A stretch of 62,218 nucleotides of DNA from Candidatus Kerfeldbacteria bacterium (GCA_016182495.1 JACPGK010000020.1:1-62218), one strand, 5' to 3'; shown: positions 11,911 through 32,537, counted from the stretch's first letter. Notes: generated from the sequence alone by a model not told the origin. Numbers and translations are program-made.

Positions 11911-11939
11911 TTGACAAAAAAAATACTCTGCTTTATACT
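11911..11939 (+). promoter_or_regulatory. Near-consensus sigma70 promoter of the aromatic amino acid operon
   Basis: TTGACA 11911-11916, 17 bp, TATACT 11934-11939. Confidence 0.9.
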
Positions 11940-11950
11940 TCGGTAACACT

Positions 11951-12034
11951 ATGAATAATTCGCACTCATTTAACTGGTACTGGTTTTATAAGCCGCTCCG
12001 ACAGGTGCTAGGGTTATTATTGTCCACACGCTAA
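11951..12034 (+). CDS. Attenuator leader peptide MNNSHSFNWYWFYKPLRQVLGLLLSTR (Phe/Trp/Tyr control codons)
   Basis: Hand translation; 6 of 7 consecutive codons (11969-11989) are aromatic (2F, 2W, 2Y); lies between the promoter and a terminator, upstream of DAHP synthase. Confidence 0.9.
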   Translation: MNNSHSFNWYWFYKPLRQVLGLLLSTR

Positions 12035-12096
12035 ATCGCATTCATTCCAGTGCAATTACCCAGACCTTTCGGAGCTTTTCCGGAAGGTCTGTTTGT
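11995..12096 (+). terminator. Attenuator: antiterminator and intrinsic terminator
   Basis: Terminator CAGACCTTTCGGA-gcttt-TCCGGAAGGTCTG 12061-12091 plus TTTGT; antiterminator GCTCCGA 11995-12001 pairs with TCGGAGC 12069-12075, extended by AGGT/ACCT and GGGT/ACCC. Confidence 0.85.
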
Positions 12097-12124: not shown

Positions 12125-13141
12125 ATGATCATCGTTATGCAAGAAAACTCACCTAAACAAGATGCCCTCAACGTGGTTGAACATGTACGGCAACTCGGCC
12201 TGCAGCCGGTGTTGTTAGAAGGTACCGAGCGCAATGTTATTGCCGTGATTGGTGATGAGCGCATTTTGGATGTGCCAGTGTTGAACGCCATGACCAGCGT
12301 AGAAAAAGTCATGCCAGTGCTAGCCCCGTTTAAACTAGCCTCGCGCGAACATGCCAAAACCAAAACGGTTATCACCGTTGCCCCTAACGTTAGCATCGGT
12401 GGAACTCGCCTGGCCATTATGGCCGGCAACTGTGCCGTGGAAACCTTGGATGTTTCCTTACGTACCGCTCAAGCTGTACAGCACGCTGGCGCTACCATTC
12501 AACGCGGTGGCGCTTTTAAACCACGCACCTCACCCTATTCATTTCAAGGTTTGGGTGAAGAAGGCCTATTTATTTTACGCGAGGTGAAAAAACAAACTGG
12601 CTTACCGATTATTACCGAAGTGCTCGACCCACGCCAAATTGAATTGGTCGCTGAACACGCTGATATTTTGCAAGTGGGCACACGCAATATGCAGAATTTT
12701 GAATTATTACGTGAGCTGGGTAATTGTGGTAAACCGGTGCTATTAAAACGTGGCATGGCTGCTACCCTTGATGAATTTTTAATGTCAGCTGAATATATTC
12801 TATCGAGTGGTAATCCTAATTTAATTCTGTGTGAGCGCGGTATTCGCACCTATGAAACCGCCACGCGCAATACTCTTGATATTTCTGCCATTCCCGTACT
12901 CAAAGTTAAAACGCACTTACCGGTAATTGTCGATCCATCCCATGCGGCCGGTAAGCGTGCCTATGTGGCTGCGCTCGCTAAAGCCGCCATTGCCGCCGGG
13001 GCGGATGGTTTATTGTTAGATGTGCACCCCGATCCGGCGCGGTCGTTAGTTGATGCCGATCAAGCCTTAAGTTTTGAACAGTTTGATGATTTAATGACAG
13101 ATATCACCTTAATTGCCCAAGCAGTTGATCGAACCATTTAG
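12125..13141 (+). CDS. aroF: DAHP synthase type I-beta with N-terminal regulatory domain
   Basis: [30 protein letters not shown]. Confidence 0.95.
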
Positions 13142-24672: not shown

Positions 24673-25629
24673 ATGAACATAGCAATAATAGGCGCTGGTC
24701 GTTTCGGCACAGTATTACAAAAACATTTATCAACGGATAATGATGTGGTGATGGTAGGAGTAGAGTATCATTCTGCCCTTACCTCGGAATTATCGGAATG
24801 CAACCTAATCATTTTTGCGGTACCCAATCGTGCCTTGGCTGAAGCGGTTCAACAATGGAAACCGTTGATATCTGATACAGCCATTATTATGGATGTTGGT
24901 TCAGTCAAACTGTTGCCCTGCCAAATTTTATTAGAAGCTTTTCCCGAGCATAATGTCATCGGTACGCATCCATTATTCGGACCCGACAGTGCAGCTGAAT
25001 CATGGGACGGTCAAAAAATGGTGTGGTGTAAATTACACTGTGCCGACGATATCTATAACAATGTCCAAACATTATTTACCAGCCGTGGTGTTACTACTAT
25101 TGAAACTACACCGGAACAGCACGATCACATGATGGCGCAAACTCAAGCTCTGGTTCATTTTATTGGCCGGGCACTAACCGGTTTACAACCTCAAACTATT
25201 GCCACACCCGATTACGCTAATTTACTGCGCATGATGGAAAAAGTGACCAATGATACCTGGGAGTTATTTTATGATATGCAAAATTTAAATCCGTATACCA
25301 AACCGGTGCGGCAAGAATTTATAAAAAATATTGAAAAGTTGGAACAGGAGATTAAGAAAGAAAGCCAGGGTGAAAAATCGATTAATGAAATCCGTTCCCA
25401 AATAGATACTATCGATGAACAGATTGTGGCCCTGGTGGGGGAGCGGTTCAAATTGGCGCAACAGATTGGGCAACGTAAAAAAGATATTCAAGCTGACGTT
25501 CAAGACCCAAAACGCGAAACTGAATTATATTTGCGCATGCACCAGTTATCGCAACAATACCAGGTGCCGTTAGAAGTGGTGACACATCTCTATGATTATT
25601 TAATGGATCAAGCTCGCCGGATGCAATAA
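24673..25629 (+). CDS. tyrA: Prephenate dehydrogenase fused to C-terminal AroQ chorismate mutase
   Basis: GAGRFG, DVGSVK, HPLFGP, HDHMMA; C-terminal IRSQIDTID...R...IG..K...DPKRE. Confidence 0.9.
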   Translation: MNIAIIGAGRFGTVLQKHLSTDNDVVMVGVEYHSALTSELSECNLIIFAVPNRALAEAVQQWKPLISDTAIIMDVGSVKLLPCQILLEAFPEHNVIGTHPLFGPDSAAESWDGQKMVWCKLHCADDIYNNVQTLFTSRGVTTIETTPEQHDHMMAQTQALVHFIGRALTGLQPQTIATPDYANLLRMMEKVTNDTWELFYDMQNLNPYTKPVRQEFIKNIEKLEQEIKKESQGEKSINEIRSQIDTIDEQIVALVGERFKLAQQIGQRKKDIQADVQDPKRETELYLRMHQLSQQYQVPLEVVTHLYDYLMDQARRMQ

Positions 25630-25635
25630 TTGCTC

Positions 25636-25664
25636 TTGACATGAAAATACTGTATTAGTACACT
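25636..25664 (+). promoter_or_regulatory. Sigma70 promoter
   Basis: TTGACA 25636-25641, 17 bp, TACACT 25659-25664. Confidence 0.85.
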
Positions 25665-25675
25665 ACTATTAACTT

Positions 25676-25783
25676 ATGCATCAACTAGCCGTTTGTGTAA
25701 CCTTTAACTGGAACCTCCGCAAGGTAGGTACTATTAATATTACAGTTAGCCAGCGGGTTAAAACGGACTATGCTCATGCTTAA
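25676..25783 (+). CDS. Candidate leader peptide MHQLAVCVTFNWNLRKVGTINITVSQRVKTDYAHA
   Basis: ATG begins 12 nt after the -10 end, the same spacing as the aromatic leader; its 3' part covers the 5' arm of an antiterminator. Confidence 0.5.
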   Translation: MHQLAVCVTFNWNLRKVGTINITVSQRVKTDYAHA

Positions 25784-25843
25784 GTAAACAGAGTAGCTAG
25801 TAGAGAATAACCGTTTTAACCCGCTGACCAGCGGGATTTTTTT
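25751..25843 (+). terminator. Mutually exclusive antiterminator and intrinsic terminator
   Basis: Perfect 16-bp stem CAGCGGGTTAAAACGG 25751-25766 / CCGTTTTAACCCGCTG 25811-25826 competes with CCCGCT-gacc-AGCGGG 25820-25835 plus T7. Confidence 0.8.
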
Positions 25844-25880
25844 GAAGTTCAATCCGCCCTTTGTCAATTAGGAGGAAGTA

Positions 25881-26435
25881 TAGGCAACGTAGTATAAACC
25901 GGGAGTGAGATAAGGTCACTATTATTATATTGGCTTTATTCCACTCCCGGTTGGCAGACAAAGACTGTCCTGCCGGGAAAGCCGGGTACACACTTCACCG
26001 TGCGTGCCCACCGGAGAACGACCCCATGACCCCTGAGAAGTACCTGCAGCGCAAGACCATCGCTCGAACCAACAAGCTCCTCCGCCTGGCCTGGCTGGAG
26101 CTCAACGCTCCGCTCAAGTTCCAGTTCAAGGTCCAGGGCTGGAAGTCCGAGATCATGAAGCTGGCGGAGCTGGTCGGTTCGGGTATCACGTTCGAAGATG
26201 TTCGAGTGTTCGCTGTGCAGGTGGGAGTGAACGTGGAGGAGGTGCTCTCGCACCCCTTCCCGTGGGCCCCCAAGCCCACCCCCCGCCGGCCGCCGCACGA
26301 CTGCTACGACTATTCGAACATCTGATATTTAAATAGCGCATTCAGCGCGGAAGGTTGTAGGGGTATTAGGCCCTGCATGTGGAATCATCCACAAGGCAAC
26401 CCTGTTTAACGACCTCCCCCGGACTACGTTGCCTA
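25881..26435 (+). repeat. Long-range inverted repeat enclosing an orphan ORF
   Basis: TAGGCAACGTAGT 25881-25893 / ACTACGTTGCCTA 26423-26435, extendable by CCGGG/CCCGG across a 5-nt bulge. Confidence 0.8.
26026..26325 (+). CDS. GC-rich 99-aa hypothetical protein
   Basis: SD GGAG 26013-26016, ATG 26026, strong G/C third-position bias unlike its neighbours. Confidence 0.7.
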   Translation: MTPEKYLQRKTIARTNKLLRLAWLELNAPLKFQFKVQGWKSEIMKLAELVGSGITFEDVRVFAVQVGVNVEEVLSHPFPWAPKPTPRRPPHDCYDYSNI

Positions 26436-26543
26436 CCTTCTTGTGTGAAGAACTTAACCCTAGAGGTGACGAGGTTCTGCATACAAACCAGGTAAACATT
26501 CCGGCTTCACAACTCCTTTAATTCCCAGTACACTGCTACCAGT

Positions 26544-27638
26544 ATGCAGCGCTTGTTAAAAAATTTTTTACGGTTGGTAAAAATTTCTAGCCCATCAGGT
26601 AGCGAGGCAGTGATTCGTAAAGTAATGATTACTCAACTTCGCCAGTTGGGTGTAAAAATTACCGTCGATCACGCCGGTAATGTCATTGGCCGGCTGGCCG
26701 GATACGGCCAGTTAAAATCAGCCCCACCGTATTTGTTATCGGCTCATTTAGATACAGTTCAACCGTGTAGTAAAGTAAAACCGGTAGTGCGCGGCAGTGT
26801 TATTATGTCGGATGGCAGCACCATTTTAGGAGCCGATGATAAAGCCGGTTTAAGCATTATTATAGAAGTGTTACAGCAGTTACATGATCAGCCGGTGGCT
26901 CACCTACCACTTGAGATTGTGTTGACTGTTGGTGAAGAAACCTACACCGCTGGCGCTCGCCAACTTGATATCAGCAAATTACATTCCGCTACCGGTGTGA
27001 CAGTGGATGGCACTACCATTAACTGCCTGAACAATGCGTCACCCGGCATTGCCTTAATTGATGTAACAGTGCAAGGCAAAGCTGCTCATTCGGGTATGGA
27101 GCCTGAACAAGGGATTAGTGCCATTCACATTGCTGCCGCTGGCATTGCCCGCATGAAACTTGGCCGCATTTCAAGCAGCACTACTGCTAACATCGGGTTT
27201 ATTAGTGGTGGCAGCAATCGTAATTCCATTCCTGATCGCGTTACCATTCAAGGTGAAGTGCGCAGTCATTCACCCGTGCAGTTAGAACAGCAACTCGAGC
27301 GCATGCACAAAGCGTTAGAAGATGCCGCTGAACAGTATGGTGGTACTTTGCATATTAACAGCCAGTTCGTAGTACCAAGTTACAGCTTAAAACCAATTAA
27401 TCCAGCTTTGCGCAAAGTACGCACGGTGTTAGAACGCCAGCTTGGGCAAGCGGTTGATTTAATCCAAAGTTGCGGTGTATCCGATGCCAATATTTTTAAC
27501 CATAAAGGTATTACCGTGGTTGATGTTGGTACCGGCGTGCAGCGGCCACATACGGTAGCCGAGCAGATTGATTTACGTGATATGGAAATGATTACCCGAG
27601 TGGTGTTTGATTTAATTGACACAAGCAATGTCTTTTGA
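26544..27638 (+). CDS. M20 family metallopeptidase (peptidase T-like / YqjE)
   Basis: SAHLDTV, GADDKAG, GEE, GKAAHSG, SDAN, PHT..E; upstream TTCACA-17-TACACT 26506-26534. Confidence 0.92.
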   Translation: MQRLLKNFLRLVKISSPSGSEAVIRKVMITQLRQLGVKITVDHAGNVIGRLAGYGQLKSAPPYLLSAHLDTVQPCSKVKPVVRGSVIMSDGSTILGADDKAGLSIIIEVLQQLHDQPVAHLPLEIVLTVGEETYTAGARQLDISKLHSATGVTVDGTTINCLNNASPGIALIDVTVQGKAAHSGMEPEQGISAIHIAAAGIARMKLGRISSSTTANIGFISGGSNRNSIPDRVTIQGEVRSHSPVQLEQQLERMHKALEDAAEQYGGTLHINSQFVVPSYSLKPINPALRKVRTVLERQLGQAVDLIQSCGVSDANIFNHKGITVVDVGTGVQRPHTVAEQIDLRDMEMITRVVFDLIDTSNVF

Positions 27639-27773: not shown

Positions 27774-27923
27774 ATGACCACTCCCACTCCATCCACCCCT
27801 CCCGACCATCCTCCGACCCCTACCCCCACCCCCGTTCCCGCCGCGCCCCTGGTCACTCCGCCGCCCCCCCCGCGGAACGTCTCCCCCCAGGATGAGGAGG
27901 CGTGGCGCCACCACTTCGAGTGA
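27774..27923 (+). CDS. 49-aa Pro/Thr-rich small protein MTTPTPSTPPDHPPTPTPTPVPAAPLVTPPPPPRNVSPQDEEAWRHHFE (below ORF-track cutoff)
   Basis: Own promoter, structured leader, SD GGAG 27760-27763, GC-rich codons, strong hairpin after the stop. Confidence 0.6.
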   Translation: MTTPTPSTPPDHPPTPTPTPVPAAPLVTPPPPPRNVSPQDEEAWRHHFE

Positions 27924-28078: not shown

Positions 28079-28107
28079 TTGAAATTACTGGCCAAAAATG
28101 ATACACT
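28079..28107 (+). promoter_or_regulatory. Sigma70 promoter of the ncRNA
   Basis: TTGAAA 28079-28084, 17 bp, TG-a-TACACT 28102-28107. Confidence 0.8.
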
Positions 28108-28112
28108 ACCAT

Positions 28113-28280
28113 TGCCTTATCTTGAACCTTACACCACTTTCTACAATCCTTTCTCTTCGGGAGTCTAACATCGTTGTGATCTAGTGAGACGACAACCATT
28201 CAGCCGTTGTTTCAAATGATTGCACCTGCAGACACCCACCTAAAACCAGAGGGGAGTGGATTTGGTCTCGGATAAGGCCC
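28113..28280 (+). ncRNA. ssrS: Probable 6S RNA
   Basis: Rod fold: GCCTTATC 28114-28121/GATAAGGC 28271-28278; CCACTTTCT/GGGGAGTGG; central bubble; GGGAGTCT 28159-28166/AGACACCC(ACCT) 28230-28241 resembling the Firmicutes 6S motif; inner TGAGACGAC/GTTGTTTCA; own promoter and terminator. Confidence 0.75.
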
Positions 28281-28287
28281 AAATGAT

Positions 28288-28311
28288 CCCAGCACACTGC
28301 TGGGGTTTTTT
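28288..28311 (+). terminator. Intrinsic terminator
   Basis: CCCAGCA-cac-TGCTGGG followed by GTTTTTT. Confidence 0.85.
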
Positions 28312-28319
28312 GTAACTAA

Positions 28320-28422
28320 AACCTCATCCCCGACCCTTCTCCTATTTAGGAGAAGGGTGCCCGTACAGCAATATTCCCCCCCCTTCTCTTCAGTAGGAGA
28401 AGGGGGTTAGGGGGATGAGGTT
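28320..28422 (+). repeat. Nested palindromic REP-like element
   Basis: Outer IR AACCTCATCCCC/GGGGATGAGGTT enclosing two related hairpins, CCCTTCTCCT..AGGAGAAGGG and CCCCCTTCTCTT..AGGAGAAGGGGG. Confidence 0.8.
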
Positions 28423-29011: not shown

Positions 29012-30802
29012 ATGGCTATAACGACACTGCCTGTGATTAATATTGGTCGTAGTCCGTCACAGTCTTCGGACGTGGCGGATGTTGGAGTTGGTAATTTCAT
29101 CGCCATGGAAAGCTACCTCCAAAGCGAGCAATTCGCTGTTGGTGGTATTGACTTTTCCACGGCACTAACGCGGCTATGGGCAGCGTTGCCTACCGGCTGG
29201 ACACGTGAACACGTGTTCGATGCCAAGTGGGTGCCGTTGTCGGTGTATGCCGCGGTAGAGCTGCAGCTGGCTCGCCTGGTAGGTGACCCAGCTAGGTTGG
29301 TTGAGGCAGCCCAGTATGGGGCGGTGCGCTCCAAGTATGGCGGCAAGTTCGCCATTTCGGATCGCTTCACCCTTGGGTTGTACGCAATCAGCCCGCAGAT
29401 GTTTCATGCCCAGGTAGTGCCTCGGGCCACTGGGATGTTCAATATCAACAAGAGAACAGAAGTGCTACAGAGTTCTCCCACCAGTGTGACCTATCGCCTG
29501 ACGTACGTTCAGGAGTCAACTGGTGTGCGGTTGCGTAGCCCCCGCGAGGATCATCGCTCTCTGCAGTGGTGGGCTCCTGGGTTTACGTCCGCTCCTTCCA
29601 AGGAACGGGGAGAGTTCTCTCACATCACCAGGGTGTTGGTCGAACTCGATCTGCCCTGGTTGTTCGAGGACAACCGCGAGTTCATCGCTGATTCGTGTCA
29701 CTACGAAATCATCGGCGATGAGCTCTGTCTTAATGGGCAAGTGGTGGCTCAACGTATTTCGCTTTTTTTAGATGACTCCGGTTACTTCACTGCGCGGGAA
29801 AATATCGGCAGACCAAGCCGACCCGCTTGGGAAGTAATCAAGGATGTCATCGTGACTGCTCCAGATGGGCATGCCTGGGTGGTAGCTTACCAAGGAGAAT
29901 TGTATTGCCCCGAAGCTGGGTGTAGCATCTTCCGCTATACCTGGAATCGGATCGGCAAGATTTTCTCTTGGCGGTTGTTCACCATCCTGCTGCATATGAT
30001 CTCAAAAAAGCGGGCGCAAAAGGGCGAACAGGAAATCCTGGAACGCCTTGACGTAGCGCTGGCTCAAGAGATCGCAGCGCTGGAGCGACTCGGTTTGCAG
30101 TCAAGTGAGGCCGGGCTGTATCCAGATGCCCGCTTCATGAAGGCTGCTGCCGATGGCCGGTTGGAAGGCATTGCCATTGAGCGCCCGGTGGTGCTGGTGT
30201 TCGACATCCGTGGCTGGACGCGGACATCGCGAGCCATGGGTTCCGAACAGGTGGCTGCACGAATCATGCAGCCGTTCATGAATCGGGTGAATCAGGCAAT
30301 TGCTGCCTACCGGCCAAATGTGTGGGATACGAACCCCCCATACGGCGTACCAATCGCCTACCTCTTCAATCATACTGGAGATGGTGTGGCCATTGTGTTC
30401 TACAACGCCGAAGAAGGGTCTCTCGTGAATCTTAGCCTCACTGTGGCGCAGCAACTCCATGCTGCCATCGGTGAGCTGATGGATCACGAGAGTCGTCCCA
30501 TGGTCGGGCGGTGTGGTATCGCTTCGGGTGACCAGGTGGTCATGTACGAGGTTGGTACCGCGCAAGGCAGCCGTCGGTTGTGCTTCAACGGCAACGCCAT
30601 TAACCTGGCGGCCCGTTGCGAAGCAGCCGGTAAGTTGCCTGATATGGCTGCCCCTGAAACTTTCCCCACCACCCTGATGCCGACTGCTTTGGCCGATCTT
30701 GAGATCGTGTCACAGCATGCGGCCTTCGTGAATGTGGGGGCGACTGACCTGCCCGGTGTTGGGTTAGTCCGCCTTTCTCGGGTGGTGGATCCGCGGGAGT
30801 GA
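29012..30802 (+). CDS. Class III adenylate/guanylate cyclase domain protein with unknown N-terminal region
   Basis: VFDIRGWT, TGDG, CGIASG, GNAINLAARCE; SD AAGGAG; GC-rich; TTGACA at 28932. Confidence 0.8.
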   Translation: MAITTLPVINIGRSPSQSSDVADVGVGNFIAMESYLQSEQFAVGGIDFSTALTRLWAALPTGWTREHVFDAKWVPLSVYAAVELQLARLVGDPARLVEAAQYGAVRSKYGGKFAISDRFTLGLYAISPQMFHAQVVPRATGMFNINKRTEVLQSSPTSVTYRLTYVQESTGVRLRSPREDHRSLQWWAPGFTSAPSKERGEFSHITRVLVELDLPWLFEDNREFIADSCHYEIIGDELCLNGQVVAQRISLFLDDSGYFTARENIGRPSRPAWEVIKDVIVTAPDGHAWVVAYQGELYCPEAGCSIFRYTWNRIGKIFSWRLFTILLHMISKKRAQKGEQEILERLDVALAQEIAALERLGLQSSEAGLYPDARFMKAAADGRLEGIAIERPVVLVFDIRGWTRTSRAMGSEQVAARIMQPFMNRVNQAIAAYRPNVWDTNPPYGVPIAYLFNHTGDGVAIVFYNAEEGSLVNLSLTVAQQLHAAIGELMDHESRPMVGRCGIASGDQVVMYEVGTAQGSRRLCFNGNAINLAARCEAAGKLPDMAAPETFPTTLMPTALADLEIVSQHAAFVNVGATDLPGVGLVRLSRVVDPRE

Positions 30803-32367: not shown

Positions 32368-32396
32368 TTGACAGCTCCAGAGTTATGGTTTAGGGT
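32368..32396 (+). promoter_or_regulatory. Sigma70 promoter of the leu operon
   Basis: TTGACA 32368-32373, 17 bp, TAGGGT 32391-32396. Confidence 0.75.
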
Positions 32397-32403
32397 AGAT
32401 GTA

Positions 32404-32478
32404 ATGTTCAACCAAACTTTTCAACAACTCCTTAGCCTTCTTACCCTTCGCACACCGGTGGGCAGTGAGGCCTTGTAA
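32404..32478 (+). CDS. leuL: Leu attenuator leader peptide MFNQTFQQLLSLLTLRTPVGSEAL
   Basis: 5 Leu in 7 codons (CTC CTT agc CTT CTT acc CTT); ATG at the predicted transcription start. Confidence 0.88.
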   Translation: MFNQTFQQLLSLLTLRTPVGSEAL

Positions 32479-32537
32479 TTAAGAACAACTAGCAATTCGT
32501 TCTGCAGCTTCCCACACCGGGAGGTATTTTTTATTTT
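32455..32537 (+). terminator. leu attenuator antiterminator and terminator
   Basis: GCTTCCC-acacc-GGGAGGT 32507-32525 plus ATTTTTTATTTT; CCGGTGGG 32455-32462 pairs with CCCACACCGG 32511-32520. Confidence 0.82.

Follow-up and report, generated by a model that had tools for sequence, protein, structure and literature searches.

The stretch of DNA considered here, hereafter the window, is a contig of 62,218 nucleotides (JACPGK010000020.1:1-62218) from the genome of a Candidatus Kerfeldbacteria bacterium (GCA_016182495.1; 1.3 Mb, 43 % GC), and the subject of this work is a compact element on its + strand, at 25636–25843. The element directly follows a long aro/trp operon, which opens with a DAHP synthase gene at 12125 and ends with a fused gene for TyrA and chorismate mutase (tyrA-CM); the stop codon of this final gene and the −35 hexamer of the element are separated by 6 nt, and no terminator was found between the two. 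On the other side lies a GC-rich orphan gene enclosed by inverted repeats. The element comprises a promoter, a short open reading frame (ORF), the two arms of a long antiterminator helix and a predicted intrinsic terminator (Table 1), and with a probability of roughly 0.6 it is a classical four-segment, ribosome-mediated (leader-peptide) transcription attenuator on a near-leaderless transcript. An earlier note, made from the sequence of the window alone, had taken these parts for a translation-coupled terminator/antiterminator switch. All of them are present, from the promoter, the ATG 12 nt past the −10 hexamer and the 35-codon ORF to the 16-bp antiterminator and the terminator with its seven T residues, and such coupling is very probable, the ORF, the antiterminator and the terminator being kept at all ten loci of the module while the sequence drifts.

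Table 1. Features of the element and of the adjoining cassette in the window (SD, Shine–Dalgarno; IR-L and IR-R, left and right inverted repeats)
Feature	Position	Strand	Description
tyrA-CM fusion gene	24673–25629		PDH_N, PDH_C and CM_2 domains
Promoter, sigma-70-type	25636–25664	+	−35 TTGACA (25636–25641), 17-nt spacer, −10 TACACT (25659–25664); 10/12 positions match
Leader ORF	25676–25783	+	35 codons and stop (MHQLAVCVTFNWNLRKVGTINITVSQRVKTDYAHA); stop codon 25781–25783; ATG 12 nt past −10
Predicted segment 1 (anti-antiterminator)	25691–25703	+	Codons 6–10; pairs with arm A in the terminator-constrained fold
Candidate control codons	25703–25711	+	Phe10 (TTT), Asn11, Trp12 (TGG)
Arm A (segment 2), antiterminator 5′ arm	25751–25766	+	16 contiguous pairs with arm B
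Arm B (segment 3), antiterminator 3′ arm	25811–25826	+	Closing bases are the terminator 5′ arm
Predicted intrinsic terminator	25820–25843	+	CCCGCT-GACC-AGCGGG (25820–25835), then A and T7 (25837–25843)
Cassette left boundary	25868–25893	+	SD-like TTAGGAGGA box and IR-L (TAGGCAACGTAGT, 25881–25893); box reads TTAGGAGGA...GGCAACGTAGT
Long hairpin opening the cassette	25897–25952	+	26-nt arms, 81 % complementary
Cargo, GC-rich ORFan	26026–26325	+	99 aa; GGAG 10 nt before ATG
Cassette right boundary	26423–26448	+	IR-R (ACTACGTTGCCTA, 26423–26435) and pyrimidine-rich tail pairing with the SD-like box

The leader and its competing folds

The promoter is the joint best of nine promoter-like sites between 24500 and 29500; since shuffles of this region yield 7.2 ± 2.9 such sites, the match by itself is not above chance. 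The predicted transcript has a 5′ untranslated region of about 4–5 nt, and the ORF that follows begins without a Shine–Dalgarno sequence. Its frame remains open across arm A, where the remaining two frames hold three and four stops, and an open frame of this kind arises in dinucleotide shuffles of the window with a probability of 0.085. A short ORF placed directly downstream of a promoter and ahead of the downstream gene is the arrangement by which leader-peptide attenuators are recognized, and it is present at all ten loci described below.

Two further leaders of the window offer a standard of comparison. The leader at 11913–12096 precedes the DAHP synthase gene of the aro/trp operon and encodes, as read by eye, the peptide FNWYWFY, while that at 32370–32535 precedes an isopropylmalate-synthase-like gene and encodes LLSLLTL, also by eye; both have the promoter-to-ATG spacing of the element and both end in a terminator. 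Because these two leaders share that spacing and show obvious control codons, they support the interpretation of the element as an attenuator. The sequence TTT-AAC-TGG (TTTAACTGG) that the earlier note had seen both in the element and in the aromatic leader does recur in the latter, at about 11951.

The perfect 16-bp helix formed by arms A and B shares the bases CCCGCT with the terminator, so that the two structures are mutually exclusive. The terminator stem has 6 bp, five of which are G-C pairs, and a 4-nt loop, and the local hairpin is predicted at −10.3 kcal/mol. The minimum free energy fold of the 187-nt RNA from 25664 to 25850 includes the antiterminator and reaches −51.7 kcal/mol (z = −2.55), a value matched by 3 of 200 shuffles. 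When the whole 1.3-Mb genome was scanned for ungapped antiterminators of at least 10 bp, with at most one mismatch, that overlap the 5′ arm of a terminator, two sites were obtained, that of the window being by far the longer. The antiterminator state of the window RNA is predicted at −48.7 kcal/mol and the terminator state at −43.0 kcal/mol; because this antiterminator is unusually strong, the switch of the window may be biased towards read-through.

The element is single-copy in its own genome, with no second instance found. The scan against Rfam that the earlier note had proposed as a means of excluding a known riboswitch returned no match for the whole window at the gathering threshold, and between 25500 and 26600, at E values up to 10, it returned just three microRNA models, all with E above 6 and all lying outside the element.

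Recurrence and conservation of the module

A BLAST search with 25600–26030 against 60 relatives gave no real match, only two chance matches of 24 nt (E ~0.01). As nothing alignable was found, relatives of the element were sought by synteny and by pattern. An orthologue of tyrA-CM is present in 11 of the 12 other genomes of the family, and inspection of ten loci revealed the same layout downstream of it in G002, G003, G005 and G006. A structure pattern (CGGG-N45-70-CCCGC-N4-11-GYGGGAWTTTT) matched eight of 32 genomes of the order, with no match for the reversed control, and added G001 and G023; the eighth match, in G022, resembles a plain terminator and was rejected. Inspection upstream of the gene for an M20 peptidase in four more genomes added G007 and G011, which had escaped the pattern because their cores differ slightly. 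The module of G009, located behind a small convergent gene, came to light through the metagenome contig L047, which is indistinguishable from G009 across the 250 nt compared.

In this way the module was found in ten genomes of the order, nine of which (the window genome, G001, G002, G003, G005, G006, G007, G009 and G011) are among the 13 genomes of the family, while G023 represents another family. It was not found in G004, G008, G010 and G012, whose assemblies are 83–96 % complete and fragmented, that of G004 leaving just 1.2 kb to the contig end. A scan of metagenomes with a tyrA-CM alignment retained 80 loci, only three of which are close relatives: L047, L046, which stops at the −35 hexamer, and L045, which carries another gene after tyrA. 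Across the class, the pattern matched 21 of 401 genomes and the controls none; the strings matched outside the order resemble ordinary terminators preceded by a fortuitous CGGG. At six of the ten loci (the window, G002, G003, G005, G006 and G009) tyrA-CM is the first or the second gene upstream of the module, and in G001 the upstream gene is trpG-like, as judged by eye.

The geometry of the module is conserved. The −35 and −10 hexamers are 16–17 nt apart, and the ATG lies 10–13 nt past the −10 hexamer at nine loci and 17 nt past it in G007 (by eye). At all ten loci the leader frame comprises 32–44 codons, is open through arm A and meets its stop 0–18 nt beyond it. In five genomes for which dinucleotide shuffles were made, the chance of such an open frame is 0.08–0.22 each, with a product of 3e-5, and the alternative frames of these genomes contain 0–4 stops, with at least two in nine of ten frames.

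The two arms covary. Beyond the CGGG/CCCG core, the extensions of A and B differ in sequence between genera while their complementarity is kept (Fisher-combined p 1.9e-5, seven genomes). This was established with a duplex-versus-shuffle test of our own; pair counting on a MAFFT alignment was set aside because bulges misalign the helix extensions. In G007 the core itself is altered at three places together (GCGGA / TCCGC / GCGGA).

Terminators are predicted at all ten loci, at −7.3 to −12.7 kcal/mol. Folded only as far as the end of arm B, the nascent RNA forms the A:B helix at seven of them, the exceptions being G001, G006 and G009; with the 3′ arm of the terminator available, the terminator state is lower in energy than the antiterminator state at nine, with the window as the exception. 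The earlier note had proposed read-through as the default fold; this agrees with the energies of the window but not with those of its relatives, nor with the three nascent RNAs that form no antiterminator. When the terminator is enforced in constrained folds, arm A pairs with an upstream segment 1 at every one of the ten loci. This segment is the extreme 5′ end, including the AUG, in G001, G003, G006, G009 and G011, and falls within codons 5–14 at the remaining loci. Because segment 1 pairs with arm A throughout, the three-segment layout of the earlier note gives way to a four-segment design with 1:2, 2:3 and 3:4 pairings.

A nine-base box of the DnaA-box form (TGTGGATAA) was observed about 3–17 nt upstream of the −35 hexamer in G001, G002, G003, G006, G007 (one base short), G011 and L046, but not in the window. 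It occurs 31 times in the genome of the window, against about 10 estimated by chance, and often stands ahead of promoters.

Probable ribosome-mediated attenuation, its possible input and competing explanations

The elements are there, they exclude one another, they are conserved and their arms covary; a transcription start, translation of the leader, termination and an input are what this arrangement suggests. RNA polymerase would initiate about 7 nt past the −10 hexamer, and a ribosome would load at the 5′-proximal AUG; leaderless initiation must be assumed because a Shine–Dalgarno sequence is absent. An undelayed ribosome would read the 35 codons, cover arm A and be positioned at or near the stop codon as arm B and the 3′ arm of the terminator emerge. 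With arm A covered, arm B would close the terminator and transcription would end at about 25843. A ribosome that stalls early, over segment 1, would instead mask this segment and leave arm A free to form its 16 bp with arm B, whereupon the terminator would be blocked and the polymerase would presumably continue into the cassette (25868–26448) and its ORF.

The leader-peptide attenuators of amino-acid operons in Proteobacteria (the trp, phe, leu, thr and ilv leaders) provide the classical form of such control. The element resembles them in its short promoter-proximal ORF, its 1:2, 2:3 and 3:4 pairings, its terminator and the presence of candidate control codons at segment 1. It differs from them in that the leader has no Shine–Dalgarno sequence, that one or two candidate control codons take the place of a run, that the ORF crosses segment 2 and stops in the 2:3 loop, and that a variable orphan cassette rather than a biosynthetic operon lies behind the switch. 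It is best read as a near-leaderless form, with a minimal control region, of a known kind of regulation, ribosome-mediated attenuation. Leaderless leader peptides that start at or next to the transcription start have been predicted from transcriptome data in Deinococcus deserti, where attenuation is likewise proposed; those leaders abound in the cognate residue and stand before genes for tRNA synthetases or biosynthesis (PMC4007540). The leader of the window, in a member of the Candidate Phyla Radiation (CPR), by contrast has no run and precedes an ORFan.

The composition of seven leaders (243 residues in total) was compared with the proteome of the window genome in order to define candidate inputs. 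Asp and Glu are nearly absent (3/243, against 10.4 % of the proteome), a scarcity typical of leaders, and Asn is enriched (8.2 % against 4.2 %). The earlier note had regarded the peptide as rich in Val, Thr and Ile; this proved a weak lead, given that Ile, Leu and Val stand at proteome level (7.4, 10.3 and 9.5 %, against 6.8, 9.7 and 7.5 %; p above 0.27) and that Thr (11.1 %, against 7.3 %) reaches a p value of 0.035 before correction. The position of the aromatic codons is more telling: in these leaders, all five Trp codons and six of the seven Phe codons are found no later than codon 14. Relative to segment 1, a codon for Trp or Phe stands two codons past it in the window and in G001, G002, G003, G005 and G006, one codon past it in G009, and inside it in G007, G011 and G023. 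A ribosome waiting at such a codon would cover segment 1 and free arm A, which is the geometry of the trp attenuator. Because single Trp or Phe codons lie in or next to segment 1 at all ten loci, our leading guess for the input, though a tentative one, is that the leader registers at Trp12 or Phe10 when charged tRNA-Trp or tRNA-Phe runs short. The position of the module behind the aromatic operon and the TTTAACTGG that the window's leader has in common with the aromatic leader point the same way.

Several points weigh against this interpretation. The start site, the translation of the leader and the termination are all predictions, the leader lacks a Shine–Dalgarno sequence, and segment 1 derives from energy-minimised folds rather than from covariation. 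In the window, the antiterminator state is the more stable by 5.7 kcal/mol, so that termination may be rare. The peptide shows no conservation of sequence (mean column identity, 31 %), and the comparison of homologues suggested in the earlier note therefore bears out covariation of the arms and an open frame at all ten loci but not conservation of the peptide; nor did any of the seven leader peptides match a family in Pfam or NCBIfam at E values up to 10. None of the seven leaders contains a regulatory amino-acid run, and no residue is significantly enriched in them after correction. Each has one or two Trp or Phe codons only, and Trp itself is not in excess (5/243, against 1.3 %; p 0.27). The rule that places such a codon two codons past segment 1 was noticed post hoc, and the loci found last (G011 and G007, with the codon inside the segment, and G009, with the codon one past it) never conform to it. 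Nothing but its position behind the aro/trp operon ties the gated gene to an amino acid. Finally, the genomes are related, and the counts across them hence overstate their independence.

Given the lack of a run, the same RNA and the same ORF may respond to the general state of translation, in that few free 70S ribosomes, inhibitors, phage takeover or broad starvation would leave arm A free and allow read-through. The variable cargo fits such a response as well, because a cargo-specific signal is unlikely where the cargo differs among genomes, and so does the folding of the RNA alone, which in the window and six other genomes forms the antiterminator before the 3′ arm of the terminator exists. 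Precedents are reported for BmrC/BmrD (PMC4191407) and VmlR (PMC9226507), and for an upstream ORF that senses several ribosome-targeting drugs (PMC12121999). The leaders of bmrB-bmrCD and vmlR are likewise ORFs without a run whose translation sets the choice between terminator and antiterminator; the genes that they reportedly control, however, confer resistance and encode an ABC transporter and an ABC-F protein, respectively (PMC4191407, PMC9226507), and no resistance gene lies behind the switch of the window. Unlike these antibiotic-responsive attenuators, the element has a segment 1 and a placement of Trp and Phe codons that suggest a hungry-codon design, and a response to the general state of translation would leave this placement, seen at all ten loci, unexplained. 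Moreover, the untranslated RNAs of G001, G006 and G009 fold segment 1 with arm A and then form the terminator, so that in these genomes a lack of translation would terminate transcription rather than permit it. Sensing of the general state of translation is the main rival to aromatic sensing, but is considered rather unlikely.

It is improbable, in our estimation, that the attenuator responds to some other amino acid (threonine above all, perhaps isoleucine or asparagine), with the stretch TINITV as its control region. The frequencies of Thr (27 of the 243 residues) and Asn lean in this direction, as do the leaders of the genus g2, where Thr occupies 4–5 of codons 7–16 in G006 and G011 and G001 has seven Thr; in g2, moreover, the genes past the cassette are the M20 gene and then apparent genes for threonine dehydrogenase and 2-amino-3-ketobutyrate ligase (judged by eye from their N-termini). 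A second leader at the same locus in G007 and G004 is leaderless and clearly Ile-rich (…VIISNIIIS…). The excess of Thr, however, is driven by one genus and is lost after correction for 20 tests, and the locus of the window has no Thr gene downstream. Thr23 of the window leader, furthermore, lies so near arm A that a ribosome stalled there would mask the part of the arm that competes with the terminator.

Readings that dispense with translational control fare worse. The terminated transcript of about 170 nt might itself be the product, either as a trans-acting small RNA or as a small-protein gene with its own terminator, and might in addition supply a 3′ end for the aro operon, which lacks a terminator and whose last stop codon lies 6 nt from the −35 hexamer. 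RNAs derived from attenuators are reported to be able to act in trans (PMC6614838), and the leader at 25700–25714 is 93 % complementary to 26118–26132 in the cargo ORF. Nevertheless, a peptide that is not conserved and belongs to no Pfam or NCBIfam family argues against a small protein, and a small RNA would explain neither a frame open exactly across arm A at all ten loci nor a covarying antiterminator that overlaps the terminator, which makes this explanation very improbable. That a metabolite or a protein binds the hairpins, as in a riboswitch or an attenuator of the TRAP or PyrR type, with the ORF merely incidental, is scarcely credible: in several genomes the loop between A and B does have a hairpin within it and stretches rich in purines, but Rfam gave no relevant match, the loop sequences are not conserved across genera and the frame is kept open at all ten loci. 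Attenuation mediated by a translating ribosome remains the preferred reading of the element.

The downstream cassette and its surroundings

The boundaries of the cassette behind the switch enclose 529 nt with 58 % GC. IR-L and IR-R form a perfect inverted repeat of 13 bp, the core of which is GGYAAC...GTTRCC, and hairpins analogous to the long one of the window also follow IR-L in relatives. The frame that encloses the cargo ORF (25930–26325) has a GC content at third codon positions of 0.81. The cargo contains no Pfam domain; a word-indexed search of 5.8 billion proteins and a phmmer search of 1.84 billion representatives returned only the ORF itself, and the best score obtained for it in the ESM Atlas (0.77) is below a meaningful level. 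From 25664 to 26506 the promoter scan gave no further promoter-like site on the + strand, in agreement with the proposal of the earlier note that an orphan cassette, and not a biosynthetic gene, is gated here. The switch is best read as heading a variable orphan cassette at a conserved site. The 15 complementary bases mentioned above include the Phe-Asn-Trp codons of the leader, and may reflect either chance (about 0.02 expected) or a long-range contact.

In the relatives, the frame past the attenuator consists of GGYAAC and a few variable bases on the left and of their complement and GTTRCC on the right. Nine cassette units were measured in seven genomes, four of them in tandem in G005, and the palindromic frame was also recognized by eye in G007, G011 and G009. 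The repeat stems show compensating differences (for example, GGCAACGTGAA vs GGCAATATGAA), while the strict box is single-copy in each genome. The cargo is non-homologous between genera: just a 12-residue motif links G001 and G006, and weak matches occur within G005. Since the duplex energies of the stems are alike on both strands (+ better in five of nine units, − better in four), pairing at the RNA level and at the DNA level are indistinguishable, and a role of the repeats solely as RNA of the + strand is not supported. Mimicry of the 3′ end of 16S rRNA by the cassette ends was also dismissed, as this end is identical in four relatives whose repeats differ, and so was a role of the repeats as transposon ends, with no target-site duplication seen by eye and a box that is single-copy per genome.

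Contigs from four DNA runs of two studies are colinear with the window, and no inversion joint was seen in them; no RNA run was found to contain the sequence. A contig of run X4, with a depth of 5.9 (the main form having about 37), joins 25986 to 26332, so that the flanks are intact and precisely the cargo ORF is missing or replaced; this hints, if weakly, at an exchange of cargo in the population. Apart from this low-depth contig, no direct exchange or excision product was seen. The genome has three matches to the recombinase family PF00589, on contigs C1, C27 and C32, and none on C37, the contig of the window.

A bolder interpretation, doubtful at present, is that the attenuator serves as the regulated entry promoter, or landing pad, of an integron-like capture site without an adjacent recombinase gene, where in this family of CPR bacteria GC-rich, foreign-looking genes are inserted serially, each within an AAC...GTT palindrome, and transcribed only when translation falters. 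The likeness to the Pc promoter, attI site and attC arrays of integrons lies in a fixed promoter facing promoterless cassettes that vary from relative to relative, and in inverted repeats with a conserved AAC...GTT core, covarying inner parts and up to four tandem units (in G005). Unlike in integrons, where an integrase gene adjoins the array, none of the PF00589 matches lies on the window contig, tyrA-CM is the first or second gene upstream of the module at six of ten loci, and the repeats enclose the ORF rather than follow it. If the interpretation is correct, the element would amount to a Pc promoter of gene cassettes under starvation control, triggered by aromatic-tRNA shortage or by general stress, and amino-acid sensing would be tied to the expression of acquired genes. 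To our knowledge, no such starvation-gated Pc promoter has been described, and we know of no integron Pc promoter that carries a leader-peptide attenuator.

Gene regulation in the CPR is almost unstudied, these bacteria being uncultured, and the locus would represent a conserved, near-leaderless case of attenuation read by the ribosome. It would be unusual in that the control region is cut down to one or two candidate codons, and in that the gated DNA is not a biosynthetic operon but an orphan cassette, rich in GC, whose content changes fast while its palindromic frame and its place in the chromosome are conserved. Should the switch operate in the proposed way, it would provide a testable handle on the timing of cassette expression, as well as a compact natural part of about 210 nt that couples translation status to transcription.

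The M20 peptidase gene beyond the cassette starts at 26544, 9–10 nt past the −10 hexamer of a promoter-like site (26506–26546), and looks leaderless for this reason. Regulation of this conserved gene by the attenuator was also considered; as a separate promoter-like site precedes it in the window and in G002, G003 and G005, the gene is probably not the target. In G002 the M20 peptidase forms the C-terminal half of a fusion with a PGM1-like ATP-grasp domain, and the same is suggested for G004, G005, G006 and G007 by frames that stay open for 870–889 aa at the M20 match; a search of the window genome with a query derived from G002 did not find the ATP-grasp half.

The M20 gene is followed by a patch of foreign composition with a small ORF (27774–27923) of about 65 % GC that encodes a proline-rich peptide of 49 residues. 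Farther on, at 28079–28307, promoter-like hexamers (TTGAAA and TACACT, with a 17-nt spacer) precede by about 180 nt a strong terminator with a 10-bp stem; this region contains no ORF of note and has no match in Rfam, and is possibly an unclassified small RNA. It is succeeded by a GC-rich, multi-stem palindrome with two inner hairpins (28320–28422; AACCTCATCCCC ... GGGGATGAGGTT), look-alikes of which form the ends of contigs from other places. Similar AAC...GTT repeats flank a tyrosine recombinase gene on contig C1. The gene at 29012–30802 (596 aa, 56 % GC) contains no Pfam domain and is homologous to equally GC-rich genes of G002 (28 % identity, E 4e-26; C-terminal part, E 5e-10). Because some high-GC genes thus stay high-GC across genera in genomes of 43 % GC, plain recent transfer does not explain them.

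The second, Ile-rich leader of the genus g5 (MQHTRVIISNIIISH...) is leaderless, has a terminator, and lies at 1201–1350 of L168 (G007) and at 440–600 of L169 (G004), upstream of further palindromic cassettes and an ATP-grasp-M20 gene. At locus L009 of G010, the last ~40 bases of tyrA-CM and the TATAAT promoter are repeated after an inserted membrane-protein gene, which looks like a target duplication left by another cassette-type insertion at the same spot.

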